A stretch of DNA of 63,365 nucleotides, the filler included, from Basidiobolus ranarum (Eukaryota): assembly GCA_040143965.1 (NCBI GenBank). It is 30 parts of 30 records of this genome, joined end to end, with 100 filler letters (N's around TTAATTAATTAA, not from the genome) between each part and the next. Parts side by side here need not be neighbours in the genome. Positions count along the whole stretch, not along the records: positions 61,359 to 63,365 come from JASJQH010010807.1; 29 more parts are not named here. The stretch is one strand, 5' to 3'. Both the position numbers and the translations under genes were made by a program. The notes beneath the pieces are model-generated. The model made no database searches. It had not been told where the DNA came from and saw only the letters and a list, made by a program, of their open reading frames with translations. Shown piece after piece: positions 3 through 63,365 of the stretch (positions within the stretch are counted from its first letter, which is position 1; every line of letters starts with the position of its first letter).

Positions 3-680
3 GTTGGTAGTGAGATCCTGGGTATTCTCAAGCTCTTCACAAACAAGAACATGTTGCTACTCCTCCCATTGTTTGTCTCCTCCAACTGGTTTTACTCTTA
101 CCAATTCGGCGGTGTGAATGAAGTATTGTTCAACGTTCGCACTCGTTCTTTCAACAGTGCTTTCTACTGGGCCAGTCAGATGGTCGGTGCCTATGGAATG
201 GGTATTCTTTTGGATAACGTCAAACTCAATCGTCGTACTCGTGCTATCTATGGATTAGCTGTAGTAGCTGTTCTCAACACCATTACTTGGGGTGGTGGTC
301 TCGCTTCCCAGCTCAACTACACTCGCGAGAGTCATCCCAAGGATATTGACTTCCTCAATGGCCCTGGTTACGGACCTCTCTTTGTCTTGTTTCTCTGTTA
401 TGGTCTTTGTGATGCTGTTTTGCAAACATATGCCTACTGGTTGATGGGTGCCCTATCCAACGACTCTCAAGTTCTTGCTCGTTATGCTGGATTCTACAAG
501 GGAGTTCAATCAGCTGGTGCAGCCATTGCCTGGGATATTGATGCCAAGCGCAACCCATTCATGACCCAATTCATTGTTAATTGGGTGTTGTTGACTGCCT
601 CTCTTCCCTTCTCTTTCATTGTCGCCAGAGGTATCAAAGATACTTCTGAAGTAGAACATGAGAAAGGTGTCGTTGAATAA
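3..680 (+). CDS. UNC-93-like MFS membrane protein, C-terminal part (5' truncated at contig edge)
   Basis: Frame is open from base 3 (VGSEILGILKLFTNKNMLLLLPLFVSSNWFYSYQF...). Motifs FNVRTRSFN, YAYWLMGALSND and ARYAGFYKGVQSAGAAIAW are typical of fungal/plant UNC-93-like proteins. Several hydrophobic helices. Confidence 0.9.
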   Translation, partial: VGSEILGILKLFTNKNMLLLLPLFVSSNWFYSYQFGGVNEVLFNVRTRSFNSAFYWASQMVGAYGMGILLDNVKLNRRTRAIYGLAVVAVLNTITWGGGLASQLNYTRESHPKDIDFLNGPGYGPLFVLFLCYGLCDAVLQTYAYWLMGALSNDSQVLARYAGFYKGVQSAGAAIAWDIDAKRNPFMTQFIVNWVLLTASLPFSFIVARGIKDTSEVEHEKGVVE

Positions 681-9823: not shown

Positions 9824-10517
9824 CCCTAACAGAAATTTGAGAACTGTTATCATAAGAAAGCCATCACAGCTTTAATCCATTTTGGATTAACCATTTACTT
9901 ACTGTCACAAAATCATCGAGTTAAATTTGATTTTAATCAATTTTTTTAGTGCAGGAGTAAAATTTTCAGATCTTTCAGAATAGTTGCACATGATTGGCTA
10001 CAAATCAGAGAACTATGGATGCACACATGTGCAAAGAATCTAACTCAAATTTTGCAAATTTACCTCTTGAATGCCAATTTGTCATCTTCAAAATCCCTGG
10101 TTTCTTTGATATTTTCACCCAAATATTTGTATACAGTTCTTTATACCCAAGGTTTAGCTCATATCCAACATGAGTTTGTATTAATATCTCCATCAAATCC
10201 TACCATTGTATTAATGTTGCAAACTCAAAATTCTTCCATCTATCTGGCAGATTCCCTGCATTATTGTGCCACTCTGTTCTAAGTTCTTCCCAGATATCTG
10301 CATGTTCAACACCAGACTGAATGTCAGTTTGAATGCTGTTATTCTGGAGCCACTTTCTGCACACTCACATTGTGTTTTCCCTTCACACTTTTGAAAATAC
10401 TCTTCAAAAACCTTTATTATTTTTATACATCTTTCAAGTGTGACACTACTAAGGGTGCTTTACAGTGTTTGTATGGCTTTTTGCTTGCCTTTGAGTTTGG
10501 GGCTAATTTCAACACTT
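9824..10517 (-). mobile_element. DNA transposon left end (TIR CCCTAACAGAAAT at 9824) with ORF2 3' end, inserted in a gypsy integrase remnant
   Basis: The gypsy motif KTSAYHPRTN (9750-9790) is cut off at the TIR. The same end occurs at 29240, 34767 and 62888. Confidence 0.85.
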
Positions 10518-16833: not shown

Positions 16834-18248
16834 CTACTTTACACGTTAACATCCTATCTACTCAATAATTCAATCTANNNNNNNNNNNNNNNNNNNNNNN
16901 NNNNNNNNNNNNNNNNNNNNNTTAATTAATTAANNNNNNNNNNNNNNNNNNNNNNNNNNNNNNNNNNNNNNNNNNNNTTCGTTTTAAAATTTATACCTAT
17001 AGTAGAAAAATAATAGGGGATTGTTTTCCTAAAGTTTAGTAATGATTCGTCCAGTAGTTCTGGAGATATATGCACTTCTTTTTTGGTTTCGGTGATTGCA
17101 AGACGTGTGGGAAAGGTGTAGATATGAAACTGAGTGAAGGTCAAGGTTTGCTTATGCATTATGTGTGTACGAAATATTGAGTTGATTGAGACAATATATT
17201 ATCTCCAAAATTGCCATCACTTTGGTCTGATAATCCAATTTCGTAACACTGCGTTAGGGTTGAGTTCCTGAGGTGACAGTAATTTCCAAATTGAGTTTTT
17301 GATAAATTGACTGAATTATTTTCTCGATTTGTGCTATTTTATAGGGTGGATGAGGGGGAAATTGAGTGGCATTCCTGTCTGATTTAGGAGTGTTTGATTT
17401 TCGAAAACTTGTAAGTGTAACGAAGGGTTATTCTGATGTCTCGTAACTTTTGCTCCTGATGTTCGTTTTCTTTGAAGTATATACAATAGCCAGATAAGTG
17501 GTGTGAAAGTGTCATGTTCAAATGTTGTTTCACTTCGTCGACTAGTTGAGGAGATGTTTACACTTTTGTAACGTTTAGGATGATTTTGAGACGAGTAGGA
17601 GGTGAGAGGTGTTGAAAATTTATATATAATATTTGACTATAATACATTGATGAAAATATAATAATAGCTATGAACTTTGAACAACTTGATAGAGAGTCCC
17701 TACATGAAGGCGTGTTTGACATATTACCTCAAGTAGTAAAGGACGCAACGATTGCAGAGAAACAAAGATCATTTGAAAAGGGGCAAAATATGATTGATTA
17801 TGAGAGATTGAGAGCCGAAGAAGCTGAGCGCGTCGAGTATCGAGGGTGTCAAGCTATATGAGGTCAATAAAGGAGAAAGTAGTATTGAATAGACATATCT
17901 ATTTCCGGGTGGATACAATCTATATGTAGTATTAGACTTAGGGCTAGACTAGATGACTATCAGCTATGATATATTTTAGTAATGTGTGTCTCACTTGTCA
18001 GACAATATGATGCTTAATAACTTTAGGTATTTGTTTCAATATTCAATAAACCAATTTAATGCATTTTTCTCATTCATTAGGGGTAGCAAATGACTGGAGA
18101 AACAAACAAAAGTTTAGAAAGGATATTCGCCTTGATTCTACAGTTTTAGGCAAGAACGAGATAAGCTTCAAACAACTAGATTTAGCATAATTTGATGCAG
18201 AAAACTTTATTACAAACATAAATTTAATCAAAACGACATTCCAATACT

Positions 18249-20048: not shown

Positions 20049-20396
20049 TGTTAAAGTATTTGGGAGCCTGTTAGAAGTGGTGTAGGGAATTAGAGGAATT
20101 GGTGGTTTTCACTTATTGATTTATTGAATAGAAAGTTGACATTTATAGTTTTGTCAAGACGTAAACAAACTAATGTGTAGAATGTGTTAAGGAAGGTCAC
20201 AGGAACATGTGTGCAAGGTTTGGGGCTTCTAGCACAAGTTTGAAAAATTTATATATCTGAGAACTTCTAAGTTGGTAACAATATTCCAAGTAAATTCCAA
20301 TTGAGAATAATTAAAAATATCTTAGTGAATTATAAGATAACTAAGTACTAAGCTATATATGACTATATAGGTGCTTAGGCAATGCTAATTTCAACA
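20049..20396 (-). repeat. Copia 3' LTR family A (348 bp)
   Basis: TGTTGAAATTAG...TACTTTAACA on the minus strand, directly after the PPT AGTTGAGGGAGAG. Interrupts the transposase at AGAGTAAG; the uninterrupted copy is at 45881. Confidence 0.92.
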
Positions 20397-27564: not shown

Positions 27565-27645
27565 TTAGAGCACCTGGCTAGAGTGAAGGAGGTCCCAGGT
27601 TCAAATCCTGGCCAGACCAATATTTCTCTCTAAATAATTTCAACA
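27565..27645 (+). mobile_element. tRNA-like sequence (to 27619) plus a 26-bp LTR-type end (...TTCAACA)
   Basis: TTAGAGCA-CCTGG-CTAGAGT-GAAGG-AGGTC-CCAGG-TTCAAAT-CCTGG-CCAGACCA, giving a T-arm hairpin with a B box. A second copy is at 63275-63365. Confidence 0.8.
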
Positions 27646-29239
27646 GTATATTGATTCTGGAGCCTCCCAAAACTTCACAAATGAAAAACATTAGTTTGTG
27701 GATTATGAAGAAATCCCAATTAGCAAGGCTTTCATGGGAGATGACCATACATTGGATGCTATTGGAATGGGAACAATTCAAGTCCATTTAACTTCAGCTT
27801 CTGAAGAGAAAGTATATACTTCTCAGGATGTACTACATGTTCCAGATATTGCCAAGATTTAATATCTGTAAGCAAGGCCATCTCAGAAGGGCTAAAATTT
27901 AATTTTGATAAGTCAGGATGCACCATCACTGATGAAAATGAGAATTATTTAGCTTTGGGACAAAAGTATCAGAGCTTATAAAACTTGCAAATAGTCCAAG
28001 AGGTTTATGTGTGAATAAAAGTTATTCCAATCAAGAAACTACTCAATTATGGCATAAGAGATTGGGCCACATTGGATTTGATTATTTGAGCAAAATGAAC
28101 AAAAATTGCCTAATTTCTGGAATTCAAATTAACCCCCAAACATATTGGAAATTTGTGAGGGTTGTATATATGGAAAACAAGCCAGGCAACTGTTCAAGAG
28201 CTCAGGTTTAACAAAACCTTTCAAAAAATCGGTTTTAATTCATTCAGATTTGTGTGGACCTATGCAAAATTTATCCTTATGCAGAAAAAGATATTTAATC
28301 AGGTTTGTTGATGATTATACAGGATACACTTGAGTCTACTTTACGGAAAGAAAAGAAGAAGCTCTCTCTATCTTTAGAGATTTTAACACACTTGTAGAGA
28401 CTGAAACTGGAACTAAAATAAAGAAAATAAATACTGATAATGGTGGAGAATATACTTCAACACTATTTAAGCACTTTTGCAAAGTTCATGGAATTAAACA
28501 AGAAGCTATTGCCCCTTATTCACCTCAACAAAATGGGGTTGCCAAAAGAGCTAACAGGACTATAATAGAAATGGCAAGATCCATGATAAATGCACAAAAT
28601 TTATCTCATAACTTTTGGGTAGAATCTGTTGCTACAGCTGTATATCTGAAGAATAGAAGTTTTACTAGAAGTCTGCCTAACTCTACAACATAGCAAGCTA
28701 TATATATATATGATGCTTTTTTGGAAACACTCAAATTCCAAAAGAGTAATGCTAACTATAGTATCTACTTCAGGCCAGATAAGACAAACCTAGTTTTATT
28801 AGCCTTATATGTAGATGATCTTATTATAGCAACCAATGACTTGAAGACTTTGGAAAAAACCAAATCCAGATTATCTGCCATATTCAAAATGACTGATATT
28901 GATGAACTAATGTACTATCTTGGAATCAAGATTAAGATAGATAAAACTACCAAAACAATAACTTTTAACCGGTCTAAGTGTATACTAGATATACTAAAGA
29001 AGTTTAAAATGGAAGAATGTAATCCAGTATCTACCCAAATGGAGACAAATATTAACTTGACCAAAAATGGCTCAAATCAGACATTTTTGGATTCAGATGA
29101 AAGCCCAAAATTTCCTTATCAATCCACGGTTAGAACATGGGCAGATATTGCATATTCTGTGGGAGTTAGGTGCCAATATCTTTAAATTAAGGATCTGTTC
29201 AAAGCTTAGCAGTCAAGAGGATTTTCAGATACTTGAAAG
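27646..29239 (+). mobile_element. Ty1/copia protease-integrase-RT remnant with internal deletions
   Basis: YIDSGAS, LWHKRLGH, CEGC, IHSDLCGP, TDNGGEY, PQQNGVAKR, LYVDDLII. Confidence 0.95.
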
Positions 29240-29579
29240 CTCTAACAGAAATTTGAGGATTGTTATTATAGGAAAACCATCTCAATTTTAATCCATTTGG
29301 GATTGACTATTTACTTACTGTCACAAAACTGTCCAGTTTGATTTGATTTTAATCAATTTTTTCAGTTTCAGGAGTGAAATTTCAAGATCTAGCAAAATAG
29401 TTGCACATGATTGGCTACAATCTCAGAGAACTACGGATCAACACATGCAAAAAATGTAACTGAAATTTTACACAATTACCACTTGAATGCTAATTTGTCA
29501 CCTTTGAAATCCTTAGACTCTTTGATATATTCTACTGAATATTTTTTATAAAGTTCTTCATCCCCAAGGATTAGCTCAT
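29240..29579 (-). mobile_element. DNA transposon left end inserted in copia pol
   Basis: CTCTAACAGAAATTTGAGG (one change from the TIR), directly after copia IFRYLK. Confidence 0.85.
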
Positions 29580-30420: not shown

Positions 30421-30717
30421 ACTTGGTTATCTCATAATTCACTAAGATATTATCCATTATTCCCAATTGGATTTTACATGGAATACTTTTACCAATTTGG
30501 AAGTTCTTAGATATATAGATTTTTCAAACTTGTGCTAGAAACTCCAAACTTTGCACACATGTTTCTGGGAGCTTTCTTAACAAATTCTACATGTTATTTT
30601 GCTTACAACTTGACAAAAGTATAAATGTTAACTTTCCACTTAATAATCAATCAGTGAAAACCACCAATTCCTCTAATTCTCCAAATCACTTCTAACAGGC
30701 TCCCAAATACTTTAACA
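30421..30717 (+). repeat. LTR family A lacking its first ~50 bp (interrupted by the DNA transposon)
   Basis: Matches 20049-20396 and ends CCCAAATACTTTAACA. Confidence 0.88.
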
Positions 30718-33944: not shown

Positions 33945-34767
33945 TGGAACCTGGTACACCAGTTGGAAGAGTGCTAAATACGGAAGTTTATCCAACACCT
34001 GGCACCTCCCAACAAGCCAAAACACCAGCAAATAAAACTCACTGCTCTCCAACCTCAACGGGAACTTTTCAAAGTGTTGAAATTGGTGCCAAACTTAAAG
34101 GCAAGGAAAAAGCTGCACAAACACCACAAAGCACCCTCAGTAGTGTCACACCACAAGGATGTACAAAAATAGTCAAAGTGCTTTAGGAGTATTTTCAAAA
34201 GTATGAAGGGAAAAATGCAGTGCAAGTATGCAGAAAGTTGCTTCAGAAGAAGATCATTCAACTTGACATTCAGTTCAGTGTTGACTATGCAGATATCTGG
34301 GAAGAACTTAATACAGAGTGGCACAATACTGCAGGGTATCTACCATATAGCTGGAAGAATATTGACTCAGCAACATTAATACAATGATGGGCTTTGATGG
34401 AGATAGTGATACAAACTCATGTTGGGTATGAGCTAAACCTTGCGTATGAAGAACTGTATAAGAATATTCAGGAGATTATATCAAAGAGACTAGGGATTTC
34501 AAAGATTTACAAATTAGCATTCAGGTGGTAATTATGTAAAATCTGGGTTACATTCTTTGCACATGTGTTGATCCATAGTTCTCTGAGATTGTGGCCAATC
34601 ATGCCCAACTATTTTGCAAGATCTTGAAATTTCACTCCTGAAATTGAAAAAATGATTAAATCAAATCTAACTTGATGATTTTATGATGGTAAGTTAATGG
34701 TCAATCCCAAATGGATTAAAATTGTGATGGTATTCCTACAATAACAATCCTCAAATTTCAGTAAGGG
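33945..34767 (+). mobile_element. DNA transposon ORF2 C-terminal half and left TIR
   Basis: EPGTPVGRVLNTEVYPTPGTSQQAKTP overlaps the 55034-55386 and 6580-6720 copies. Ends AATTTCAGTAAGGG at 34767. Confidence 0.85.
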
Positions 34768-35924
34768 TATTGTAATCAGGGCTATTTCAGATCCAATTTG
34801 ATCTCCTGGTGTGGGATAGAGGTACTACAACTTCTGGCATTGTATGGGGGACTTCAGTAGGCAAAATTTTGGTGAAGGGTCCACAGGAATACTATTTTCA
34901 TTGTTGGTTTTGTGTGAATCAATTTGAATTGTTGAATCAGGATAAAATTGATTATCAACATCATCTGAGGTCATTTTTAGTGAAAGTGTTTCATTTTCAT
35001 TGAACAAAGAATCCCTGGACTTGATTAACTTGGAAAATTTGGTATCATAGATCCTGTGGGCTTTGGTTTTGGTACAATAACCCCAAAAGATGCATTTCTT
35101 ACTTTTTGGATCAAATTTAGACCAATTTTTGGTCATAATTTTGACATGAGCAATGTATCCAAAGATCCTCAAGTGTTTTACATTAGGCTTAACTCCAAAC
35201 CAAGCTTGATATGGTGTAGAGTTAGACAGATGTCTAGTAAAACTCCTATTCTTCAGATATACAGCTGTAGCAACAGAGTCCACCCAAAAGGTATGAGATA
35301 AATTTTGTGCATTTATCATTGATCTTGCCTTTTCTATTATTGTCCTGTTGGCGCTTTCAGCACCTCCATTTTGTTGAGGTGAATAGGGGCCAGTAGTTTC
35401 TTTGGTAATTACATGAACTTTTGAAAAGTTCCTAAATAGTGTTTAAGTATATTCTCCACCATTATTAGTATGTATTTTCTCAATTTTAGTTCCAGTTTCA
35501 GTCTCCACAAGTGTTTTAAAATCTCTAAAGATAGAGAGAGCTTCTTCTTTTCTTTCTATAAAGTTGACCCAAATGTGTCTTGTATAATCATCAACAAATG
35601 TGATTAAATATCTTTTTCCACCTAAAGATAAACTTTGCATAGTTCTACACAAATCTGATTGAGTTAGATGAAATTTTTTGACAGATTTGATTAAACCAGA
35701 GCTCTTAAATGGTTGACTGGCTTGTTTTTCATATATACAGCCCTCACAAATTTCCACTTTGGGTGGGGGTTAATTTAAATTGCAGAAATTTGGCAATTTT
35801 TGATCACCTTGCTGAAATAATCAAATCTAATATGATCAAATCTCTTATGCCAAAATTGAATAGTTTCTTGATTGGAATAACTTACATTTACACATAAACC
35901 TCTTGGATTATATGTAAGTTTGTA
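34768..35924 (-). mobile_element. Ty1/copia integrase remnant
   Basis: ICEGC, TFVDDYTR, NNGGEY, FWVDSVATAVYLKNR, SKFDPKSKKCIF. Confidence 0.95.
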
Positions 35925-56091: not shown

Positions 56092-56883
56092 ATTCTTGAC
56101 AATATCTGGAACATGTAGTACATTCTTAAAACTACACACTTTCTCTTCAGAAGCTCCAGTCAAATTGACCTGAATTGTTCCCATTCCAATGGCTTCCAAT
56201 CAGTGGTCATCACCCATAAAAACCTTTCTATTTGAGATATCTTCATATTTCACAAACCAATATTCCTCAAGTGTGCAATATTGGGAGGCTCCAGAATCAA
56301 TATACCACACCTGAGAATCCTTGTTGGTAGTCATAGATAGAGCAGATATGAACAAGTGATCTTCTGTTATAGCCATATTTCCAGATTCAGTAAGTTTTTC
56401 TGCTTTTATAATTCTTTTAACACATTCTTTGCATAAACAGCAAGTTCTTTTACATTAATCACAGAATGTATTACTTTTCTTAAAGTGCTTTTGACCTTTA
56501 TGCCAAGATTATCCATAGGCTATTAAAACATTTTCTTCATTCTTTTGGTTAGATACTAATTTGCATAAATCTTCATCCAGCAGTCTGCCAAATACATAAC
56601 TTAAGGTCAATTTTTCAGATCTTGATTCAGGAGCCATTTCAAGGCTCTGGAACTCTTATGGCAGACCATTGATGAATGTAGCTATGATATCTTGATCAGT
56701 GGTAGGTACTTCAATCCCTTCCACTTCATCCACTAAAATATTGACTCTATTGATTAGTGATTTAATGTCTTCTCCTGGCTTCATCTTTGAGTTAAAGAAT
56801 TGTTCTCTTATAAACATCATGTTGGCAACAGAGCATGTTTGGTAGGTGTCTTCCAAGGCTTTCCATACCTTCTTGGCAGTTTT
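56092..56883 (-). mobile_element. Ty1/copia gag-protease remnant
   Basis: TAKKVWKALEDTY...MKPGEDIKSLINRV...NGLP, a decayed zinc knuckle, and WYIDSGASQ. Confidence 0.9.
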
Positions 56884-61358: not shown

Positions 61359-62888
61359 CTACTATATAGCTGAGTAAGTAGCATTGGAATGTTGTTGCAT
61401 AGCACATGCTTAGTGCCCAATGGGAAGCTCTAGCGCAGCTATTCCCCTTTGGCAATATAATCTTAGGCTTATGGCTAATATCAAGTTTGATGTGAGACTA
61501 ACTTTTTTGGTGAATCAATATCAGTGATCATGTTGAAATCTGACCAGGCTCTTGATGGCAGAATCATGGAGTTCAGTGCTTTACTTGGATAGTAGTAATG
61601 CATATGCCTGATTGAGTAGACTCCATTGAATTGACAAAATCTGCAGCAAGATAGTACATTGTGCCCACAAAAACCTCTAACTTTACTGCTAGTAGGAGTG
61701 TCAGCTATACATACAATGATATTAGCTTTAATAAAATATTCACCCATCTGAACCCCATTGGATAACCATTCAAATTCCGCAATCAAAGGCTCCAAGAAGC
61801 TATCTATATGTACTGGTGATTTGGGTCCACATATGATGGATGGAATCAAAATAATACAACTCTTAAACCATTCAGAAGGAGGAATATTTAAGTAAATTCA
61901 AATTATTGGCCAGCAAGCCTTTCCAACAGTATATTTGTTTAGTGAGAAATCTTCCAGAGCCAATGAAAATGCATGATTATACATGTTCTCAAAGAGACTT
62001 GACTTCTGAGATTCTGGTAGTGATACAGGTCAAGTATATTGGTAATACCATCAGCTTAATGGTGAGTACTTTGGTATTGGATCAATGATCAATATTTGGG
62101 TTATTTCATCAAAACTTTAAGACAGGGAATCAACAATATGTAAGCCAAATATGAATATATTTACCTGATTCAGTGATTGCAAATTGTGTGCAAACAGTCA
62201 ACACCTGATCGCTCAGATTGGATTAAAAAAAGCCACACAAGCACCTTAAAGCACCCTCAGTAGAGTTGCATTAAAAGGATGTACAAGAATAGTCAAAGTG
62301 CTTGAGTAACATTTTCAAAAGTATGAAGGGGAAAATGCAATGCAAGTATGAACAAAGTGGTTGCAGAAGAAGAATATTGAACTTGGCATCCAGTCTGGTG
62401 TTGATCATGCCAATATCTGGGAAGAACTTAATACAGAGTGGTGCAATATCACAGGGTATCCACCAGATTGCTGGAACAAAGTTGATTCAGAAATGTTAAT
62501 ACAACAGTGGGCTATGATGTAGATAGTGATACAAACTAGTGCTGAATATGAGCTAAACCCTGGGTATGAAGAACTCTGTAAAAACAATCAGAAGAATATA
62601 TCAAAGAAACTAGGGATTTCAGAGGTGACAAATCAGCATTGAAGTGGTAAATGTGTAAAATTTGAGTCAAATTTTTTGCACATTTGTTGATCCATAGTTC
62701 TCTGAGATTGTAGCCAACCATTTGCAACTATTTTGCAAGATCTTGAAATTTCACTCCTGAAACCAAAATAATTGATTAAAATCAAGTTTAACTGGAAATT
62801 TTTATGACAGTTAGTCAATAGCCAATTCCAAATGGATTAAAATTGTGATGGTTTTGTTACAATAACAATCATCAAATTTCTGTTGGGG
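61359..62888. mobile_element. DNA transposon pieces: transposase (-, to ~62200), ORF2 3' end (+) and left TIR ending at 62888
   Basis: GPKSPVHIDSFLEPL, CCRFC. The end AATTTCTGTTGGGG is the TIR with one change. Confidence 0.85.
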
Positions 62889-63240
62889 GTTTGATTCAGG
62901 AGTTGCAGGTTTACTGGGTGGAGTTGGGTTCTGCACTTTAGTAAAAGAAGCACCAAAGTCTAGAATTTCTTGTTGAAGCTGAGCAAGGGCTAGCATGATA
63001 TTTTCCATTGTAGGAGATGTTATTGATATAATACCTACTATGTTGGGGGAGGGGGCAGTTTTAAACCACAAGTTTCTCCAGGAATGATAAATGCAATGCA
63101 ATGTCTGACTTTCTGCTGAAGTAATGATTGGTTCCTTGACAAAAGAATATGTTGGTATCAATGTCCTTTGATTTTGACCAAATACCAAAGCTTCTTTGAT
63201 CAAAAACAACTGAAAACTCAACCAGTGGTGTCTTGACAAG
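62889..63240 (-). mobile_element. Probable gypsy leader and gag start, interrupted by the DNA transposon
   Basis: MENIMLALAQLQQEILD...QNPTPPSKPATPESNP: a coiled segment plus Pro-rich linker, as at the start of gypsy Gag. CpG-free. Confidence 0.5.
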
Positions 63241-63274
63241 GATACACCTACTACAATTATTCAAAGGTGGAGGG

Positions 63275-63365
63275 TGTTAAAGTTATTTAGGGAGAAATAT
63301 TGGTCTGGCCAGGATTTGAACCTGGGACCTCCTTTACTCTAGCAAGGTGCCCTAATCACTGAGCT
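63275..63365 (-). mobile_element. tRNA-like sequence (63301-63365) plus a 26-bp LTR-type end (...TTTAACA)
   Basis: Reverse complement AGCTCAGTGATTAGGGCA-CCTTG-CTAGAGT-AAAGG-AGGTC-CCAGG-TTCAAAT-CCTGG-CCAGACCA-ATATTTCTCCCTAAATAACTTTAACA. Contains A- and B-box-like motifs. Confidence 0.82.

Follow-up and report, generated by a model that had tools for sequence, protein, structure and literature searches.

Two truncated copies of a mobile tRNA-bearing unit in Basidiobolus ranarum, possibly the 3′ end of a Helenus-like LTR

The closest described systems are the Helenus elements (TRIMp3 of the tRNA type), the LTRs of which contain tRNA-derived sequence with boxes A and B and have the termini TG...CA (Kojima 2024). 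Full-length elements measure 311–1263 bp and have two direct LTRs on either side of a short non-coding stretch that contains the PBS and PPT, while the fungal families have LTRs of 116–274 bp and 5-bp TSDs and are thought to be moved by copia elements (Kojima 2024). The fungal hosts given in Table S1 of the same source belong to Basidiomycota only, being Pucciniales and three Agaricomycetes (Kojima 2024). Disagreement between anticodon and isotype is common to many Helenus families, and, among elements of this sort, Pol III transcripts have been demonstrated for Cassandra only, as stated in the discussion section of that work (Kojima 2024). Moreover, the LTRs of LTR-1_PTrit and Copia-9_PGr were reported there to be not similar, and long shared LTR stretches were argued to be unlikely (Kojima 2024).

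Cassandra, a plant TRIM, and Ajax, found in nemerteans, follow the same principle as the unit described here, with a small-RNA-gene module carried in the LTR of a non-autonomous LTR element; their module is 5S-derived and their hosts are plants or nemerteans, whereas the module considered below is tRNA-derived and located in a fungus. An earlier note on this DNA had suggested a Pol III-promoter-containing LTR of a non-autonomous element mobilised by the resident copia family, and had named Helenus TRIMs as carriers of tRNA-like sequence, which is correct (Kojima 2024).

The window, that is, the whole stretch of Basidiobolus ranarum DNA that was analysed (63,365 nucleotides, assembly GCA_040143965.1), is made up of 30 unplaced contigs of 2024 down to 2007 bp, ordered by falling length and linked by the N-run pattern N44-TTAATTAATTAA-N44. 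Since the window consists of joined unplaced contigs, adjacent pieces are not neighbours in the genome, and features spanning a linker are not real adjacencies. Fragments of repeats, copia and gypsy elements among them, account for most of the pieces. Both copies of the tRNA-bearing unit were found where they had first been noticed, copy 1 as the first 81 bases of contig 14 (27565–27645, plus strand) and copy 2 as the closing 91 bases of contig 30, where the window also ends (63275–63365, minus strand). Each copy is indeed cut by a contig edge: the contigs end inside the tRNA-like part, and the 5′ portion lies beyond both ends. The features of the two copies and of the comparator LTR are collected in Table 1.

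Table 1 Position and basis of the features of the tRNA-bearing unit, its flanks and the resident copia LTR (window coordinates)
Feature	Position	Strand	Basis or remark
Copy 2, tRNA-like part	63301..63365	-	Rfam RF00005 and sequence reading
Copy 2, 26-nt tail ATATTTCTCCCTAAATAACTTTAACA	63275..63300	-	Final 20 nt similar to the 3′ terminus of copia LTR-A; ends CA
Copy 2, flank AAAGGTGGAGGG	63263..63274	+	11/12 purines, directly before TGTT; polypurine-tract-like
Copy 1, tRNA-like part	27565..27619	+	BLASTN/alignment with copy 2; starts 10 nt further in, at base 1 of contig 14
Copy 1, 26-nt tail ATATTTCTCTCTAAATAATTTCAACA	27620..27645	+	Alignment; ends CA
Copy 1, target, copia protease coding (..W YIDSGAS..)	27646..27669	+	Alignment with window 56180-56420, minus strand
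LTR-A, 3′ end CTCCCAAATACTTTAACA	30700..30717	+	Comparator for the tail
LTR-A, further copy ends	20049 and 15641	- and +, respectively	Sequence searches

In a BLASTN comparison, bases 1–81 of contig 14 matched bases 1997–1917 of contig 30 with 92.6% identity (E 7e-29), and alignment of the copies together with their flanks gave 75 identical and 6 differing bases out of 81. The 22-mer covering the T-arm and acceptor occurred exactly twice in the window, against an expectation of 0.00, while the 5′ 20-mer of copy 2 matched only itself there, and none of the other contig ends of the window carried a portion of the tRNA-bearing unit. An exact search with the 20-mer spanning the junction of the tRNA-like part and the tail returned 0 matches in viral contigs and 0 in prokaryote genome contigs; four matching loci in metagenome contigs had no tRNA-like sequence upstream and were set aside as chance.

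The tRNA fold that had been proposed for both copies (A box, anticodon arm, AGGTC variable loop, B box/T-arm and ...GACCA) was supported by an Rfam match of copy 2 to the tRNA family RF00005, which scored 35 bits against a gathering threshold of 29 (E 0.0013), covered model positions 9–71 of 71 and was cut on the 5′ side; this was the sole Rfam match at gathering level in the window. In copy 2, a D-arm is present, the anticodon arm has the loop CTAGAGT with the anticodon AGA and one non-standard stem pair, the T-arm is perfect (CCAGG-TTCAAAT-CCTGG), and the 3′ strand of the acceptor is represented by CCAGACC plus A, the 5′ strand being cut off by the end of the contig and window. In copy 1 the tRNA-like part is reduced to 55 nt, and Rfam did not call it; the anticodon stem of this copy contains, by eye, more non-standard pairs than that of copy 2. 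The AGA anticodon, which corresponds to Ser, is accompanied by a variable loop of 5 nt (AGGTC in copy 2), so that the long variable arm of Ser tRNAs is missing here, as had been remarked earlier. ARAGORN made zero tRNA calls in the window, as expected for a truncated, degenerate copy.

As regards the internal promoter, the A box of copy 2 is partly visible, with AGCTC present and AGTGA at the place where the motif of Kojima (2024) has YGG. The B box, GGTTCAAATCC, is intact in copy 2. The general B-box consensus allows A at the relevant position of TTCAAAT. The earlier suggestion that a B-box CpG had decayed to give this sequence was not upheld, as TTCAAAT is an ordinary T-loop that is also present in published Helenus consensus sequences, and decay need not be assumed. 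A functional tRNA gene was considered as well and rejected in view of the zero ARAGORN calls, the non-standard anticodon-stem pairs, the combination of AGA with a 5-nt variable loop and the 6 differences between the copies over 81 positions.

In copy 2, ...GACCA runs directly into the tail and the CCA is not encoded, which means that the source of the module was a gene or primary transcript and not a mature primer tRNA. The tRNA-like part, ending ...CCAGACCA without CCA like a gene-derived Pol III module, is thus not derived from a mature tRNA, and a read-through copy of a primer tRNA was ruled out for the same reason.

The alignment bore out the claim that the same 26-nt tail follows the tRNA-like part in both copies and stops at an identical AACA boundary, with unrelated flanks beyond. 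The junction of copy 1 with the copia protease (W/YIDSGAS) also proved to be correctly described. Contig 27, the single comparator that spans the insertion site, carries an uninterrupted copia protease region there (...GGTGTGGTATATTGATTCTGGAGCC, translated as V W Y I D S G A), and the homology between contigs 14 and 27 begins at GTATATTG, directly 3′ of the AACA of copy 1. Because the copia sequence of contig 27 is uninterrupted, copy 1 has either been inserted into a copia gene or abuts one exactly. The pentanucleotide GTATA follows the AACA of copy 1 and, for a TSD of 5 bp, would be the candidate target duplication. With one exact terminus, two unrelated flanks and one copia-gene insertion, the shared tRNA-bearing unit is mobile. 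Note that the copia element hosting copy 1 (27646–29235, plus strand) is itself decayed by frameshifts, and its integrase is joined almost directly to the YVDD region of the reverse transcriptase, which indicates an internal deletion.

A wholly non-mobile origin, in which the copies would belong to a tRNA pseudogene family whose 3′ flank is conserved, stem from read-through of a primer tRNA or be chimeras created by the assembly where contigs end, might be suggested by the fragmented assembly, by the position of both copies at contig ends and by the small number of copies seen, only two. We regard such an origin as most improbable: two contigs whose flanks are unrelated share the same exact boundary, the interruption of a copia gene by copy 1 is precise, the missing CCA before the tail speaks against a copy of a mature primer tRNA, and the tail is LTR-like. 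Helitron ends carry CTRR; no CTRR end was present at the unit, and a Helitron end was therefore rejected.

The likeness of the tail to the end of a resident copia LTR had been pointed out before, and for copy 2 it proved to be real and not a matter of chance. The name LTR-A is given here to this LTR, represented by the 3′ LTR of the copia element in contig 10 (window 20049–20396, minus strand); it begins with TGTTGAAATT immediately after the purine run GTTGAGGGAGAG and terminates in CTCCCAAATACTTTAACA. The whole window was scanned on both strands by edit distance to this terminal 18-mer, and four sites lay within two edits of it, three of them being LTR-A ends (15641, 30717 and 20049) and the fourth the end of copy 2. 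In 25 simulated windows, the mean number of sites within two edits was 0.04 per window of about 120,000 positions. The match of copy 2 falls on the tRNA-sense strand, with its last 20 nt within two edits: the last 18 nt of LTR-A, CTCCCAAATACTTTAACA, correspond to CTCCCTAAATAACTTTAACA in copy 2, with 18 bases matching over 20. In the same scan, the end of copy 1 was not within three edits of the LTR-A end, this copy being more decayed. LTR-A itself has no tRNA-like part, and upstream of CTCCC no likeness between LTR-A and copy 2 was evident by eye. Judged by this comparison, the unit has an LTR-type terminus which, read on the tRNA-sense strand, is similar to the 3′ terminus of the resident copia LTR. 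The unit as a whole looks like a tRNA-derived module to which, a few bases downstream, the terminal 20 nt of a copia-type LTR are joined, the whole having moved as one piece at least twice.

The structure of the tail also bears on the comparison with tRNA-derived SINEs (SINE2), which similarly have a tRNA-like head with internal Pol III boxes and occur as dispersed copies. A SINE-like retroposon of about 100 bp, consisting of a tRNA-like head plus the 26-nt tail and mobilised by a LINE that recognises this tail, would account for the head with its Pol III boxes and for dispersed copies sharing one sharp 3′ end, and its length would be compatible with a 5′ end situated beyond the contigs. However, SINE2 elements end in A-rich sequence, simple repeats or a LINE-derived tail, whereas the unit ends in copia-type ...AACA at 26 nt past the tRNA-like part. 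Neither copy has an A-rich or simple-repeat end; the tail closes in CA and matches the terminus of a copia LTR, a feature that a LINE-dependent element has no reason to possess. The break of both contigs inside the unit is weak evidence for a repeat longer than about 100 bp. We find a SINE-like retroposon quite unlikely.

Very unlikely, in our estimate, is an origin from a DNA transposon or MITE with a tRNA-like stretch in its terminal inverted repeat, the two copies being opposite ends or the ends of different copies. One kind of end only was seen, once per strand, and the TGTT...AACA terminus is symmetric, both of which would suit such a repeat, but the match to the 3′ end of the copia LTR extends past the short inverted core, and the architecture agrees with that of the published Helenus LTRs.

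The latter agreement can be followed in several details, although the consensus sequences were compared by eye only, without a computed alignment, and likeness in the tRNA part also reflects the conservation of tRNAs. In the fungal Helenus LTR consensus sequences examined, a TGT(T) start and a sense tRNA-like part near the 3′ end are followed by a short CA-ending tail, estimated by eye at about 14–65 nt, and the same order of a sense tRNA-like part and then a CA tail is observed here. By eye, the tRNA-like part of Helenus-1_AmAr is very similar to the one described here, the tail of Helenus-2C_CGi starts with cattatttctccc against CAATATTTCTCCC in the present unit, and Helenus-2_PTrit ends in aatttcaaca, which is identical to the last ten bases of copy 1. 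The disagreement between isotype and anticodon recorded for Helenus families recurs in the form of AGA with a short variable loop. A link with copia, as proposed for the fungal Helenus families, may exist here as well, the terminal 20 nt of copy 2 lying within two edits of the LTR-A 3′ end (the end of copy 1 not being within three).

At the same time, three differences have to be taken into account. The element is known here only from the last 81–91 nt of the LTR. The fungal families of Table S1 (Kojima 2024) are from Basidiomycota, whereas the present host is Basidiobolus. Finally, the LTR terminus resembles that of a resident copia LTR, in contrast to the LTRs of LTR-1_PTrit and Copia-9_PGr, which are described as not similar (Kojima 2024).

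Taking these data together, we favour, with confidence slightly above even, the explanation that the copies represent the 3′ end of a Helenus-like LTR that carries tRNA-derived sequence and is mobilised by copia; the surrounding sequence is called an LTR because its terminus resembles a copia LTR end. Both copies would then be LTR 3′ ends of a single retrotransposon family, whether from solo LTRs or from 3′ LTRs. The LTR of this family would hold a sense tRNA-derived module 26 nt from its 3′ terminus, and the integrase recognition end, ...CTTTAACA, would have been copied from, or be common to, that of the resident copia. If Helenus and Cassandra are taken as models, RNA polymerase III could be recruited in the 5′ LTR by boxes A and B of the tRNA-like part, and the resulting transcript would traverse a short internal region with the PBS and PPT. 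An autonomous copia element would presumably supply the reverse transcriptase and integrase, leading, as proposed for the same two systems, to copying, integration and 5-bp target duplications. Several observations sit less well with this explanation: only two copies were seen in the window, both truncated and each with one side of its insertion visible, and they show no 5′ end, second LTR, PBS, PPT or TSD; the homology linking the copy 2 flank to the paralogous sequence of contig 18 fades, by eye, about 7 nt before the boundary and not at the boundary itself; the end of copy 1 does not come close to that of LTR-A; a run of four or more T, as a possible Pol III terminator, is absent from both tails; and the visible A box departs from the YGG motif. 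The frequency in the window of two PBS motifs taken from Kojima (2024) was also no higher than chance.

A more specific version of events can be offered tentatively, as a possibility that we would sooner doubt than accept. A separately born, Helenus-like TRIM of the Pol III type might have arisen in Basidiobolus when a bare tRNA module was grafted near the last 20 nt of a copia LTR, in which case the integrase end would be visibly borrowed from the autonomous partner.

The earlier proposal of a Pol III-promoter LTR mobilised by copia therefore stood in part: the unit is mobile, its terminus is of a copia-like LTR type and its architecture is Helenus-like, but a purine run in contig 30 fits the opposite orientation. 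In that orientation, the boundary would be the 5′ start of an LTR (TGTT...), lying on the plus strand of contig 30 after its own polypurine tract, and the tRNA-like part would be placed antisense, 26 nt inside U3, as a passenger rather than a promoter. Several features agree with this arrangement. At 63263–63282, AAAGGTGGAGGG is followed by TGTTAAAG, so that 11 of 12 bases before TGTT are purines, a level reached by 487 of the 120,326 12-mers of the window (0.40%; 0.09% when at least six G are also present). The junction in contig 30 resembles the junction between the copia-A PPT and LTR (GTTGAGGGAGAG followed by TGTTGAAATT), and the reverse complement of copy 1 starts with TGTTGAAATTA, matching the first 11 nt of LTR-A at 11 of 11 positions by eye.

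Against this stands, above all, the longer match, 18 bases over 20, which is to the 3′ end of LTR-A in the tRNA sense and, with 0.04 such sites expected per window, would have to be a coincidence in the opposite orientation. No copia pol C-terminus was recovered from the flank of copy 2: with a profile HMM built from 121 sequences, the best frame scored −2.2 bits (E 1.5) against 161 bits for the positive control, and tblastn found nothing for the same region. The flank was accordingly rejected as a decayed copia 3′ end. Moreover, no LTR comes after the contig 18 paralogue of this flank, and no antisense tRNA-like part occurs among the Helenus LTRs examined (Kojima 2024). Purine-rich sequence followed by TGTT[AG]A[AG] was found at three sites in the window, one of which is the true copia-A PPT–LTR junction. 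Another of the three sits in a genic contig and looks like chance, which also weakens the argument from the purine run; it lies at 17598–17616 on the plus strand, where GGAGGTGAGAGG followed by TGTTGAAAA is PPT–LTR-like within an otherwise genic contig without repeat context, and is probably fortuitous.

The sense orientation is preferred because a chance purine run is far likelier than a chance match of 18 over 20 to LTR-A, and because the published architecture fits it. The opposite orientation is, in our judgement, unlikely, and the purine run before TGTT is unexplained when the tRNA-like part is read in the sense direction.

The flank of copy 2 had been described as a probable gypsy leader, and this assignment was not supported: none of three ORFs in the flank could be placed in a Pfam family, and a Transposase_21 fragment and another repeat family lie farther along the contig. 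The flank belongs to an unclassified repeat, of which contig 18 has a paralogue with 74.5% similarity. When 119 ORFs of the window were compared with the flank by tblastn, only its own ORFs and weak cross-matches of the contig 18 paralogue were obtained (best E 1.7e-4). One 24-residue tblastn match (E 5.7e-6) lies in the shared X repeat, which does not adjoin the tRNA-bearing unit. The Transposase_21 (tnp2) fragment is located at 61484–61897 on the minus strand (Pfam E 1.6e-10), and its repeat family recurs in at least eight further contigs of the window. An unclassified mobile repeat of about 680–700 bp, with the sharp end ...TCTGTTAGGG and unrelated flanks, was also observed in four contigs (62227–62900, 34072–34780, 9824–10517 and 29236–29579).

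As for the significance of the tRNA-bearing unit, the evidence is fragmentary and the class has already been described, so it is modest. The unit probably represents a new host lineage for the Helenus class reported in 2024; among the titles and abstracts listed in literature searches on Helenus-type elements and on Basidiobolus retroelements, none reported such an element for the Basidiobolus lineage. If full copies confirm the assignment, tRNA-bearing LTR elements would extend from Basidiomycota to an early-diverging fungal lineage, and such an extension would support repeated independent births of these elements. If the sharing of an LTR terminus between a non-autonomous element and its copia partner is true, it would provide a handle on recognition in trans; in the case of a grafted module, there would be a direct link to the partner at the level of the LTR, which Kojima (2024) did not find for Helenus. 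From the practical point of view, copies of this kind inflate counts of tRNA pseudogenes and break short-read assemblies, both contigs here ending inside the unit.

With respect to the host, a copia RNase H ORF matched thousands of proteins, nearly all without a name, and was uninformative, while a second cellular ORF, compared with longer proteins only, had no match. The one cellular ORF with named relatives is part of a gene for a UNC93-type MFS transporter in contig 1 (window 3–680, plus strand); it shares 77% identity with a protein of Basidiobolus meristosporus, and the ten best matches all come from Basidiobolus.
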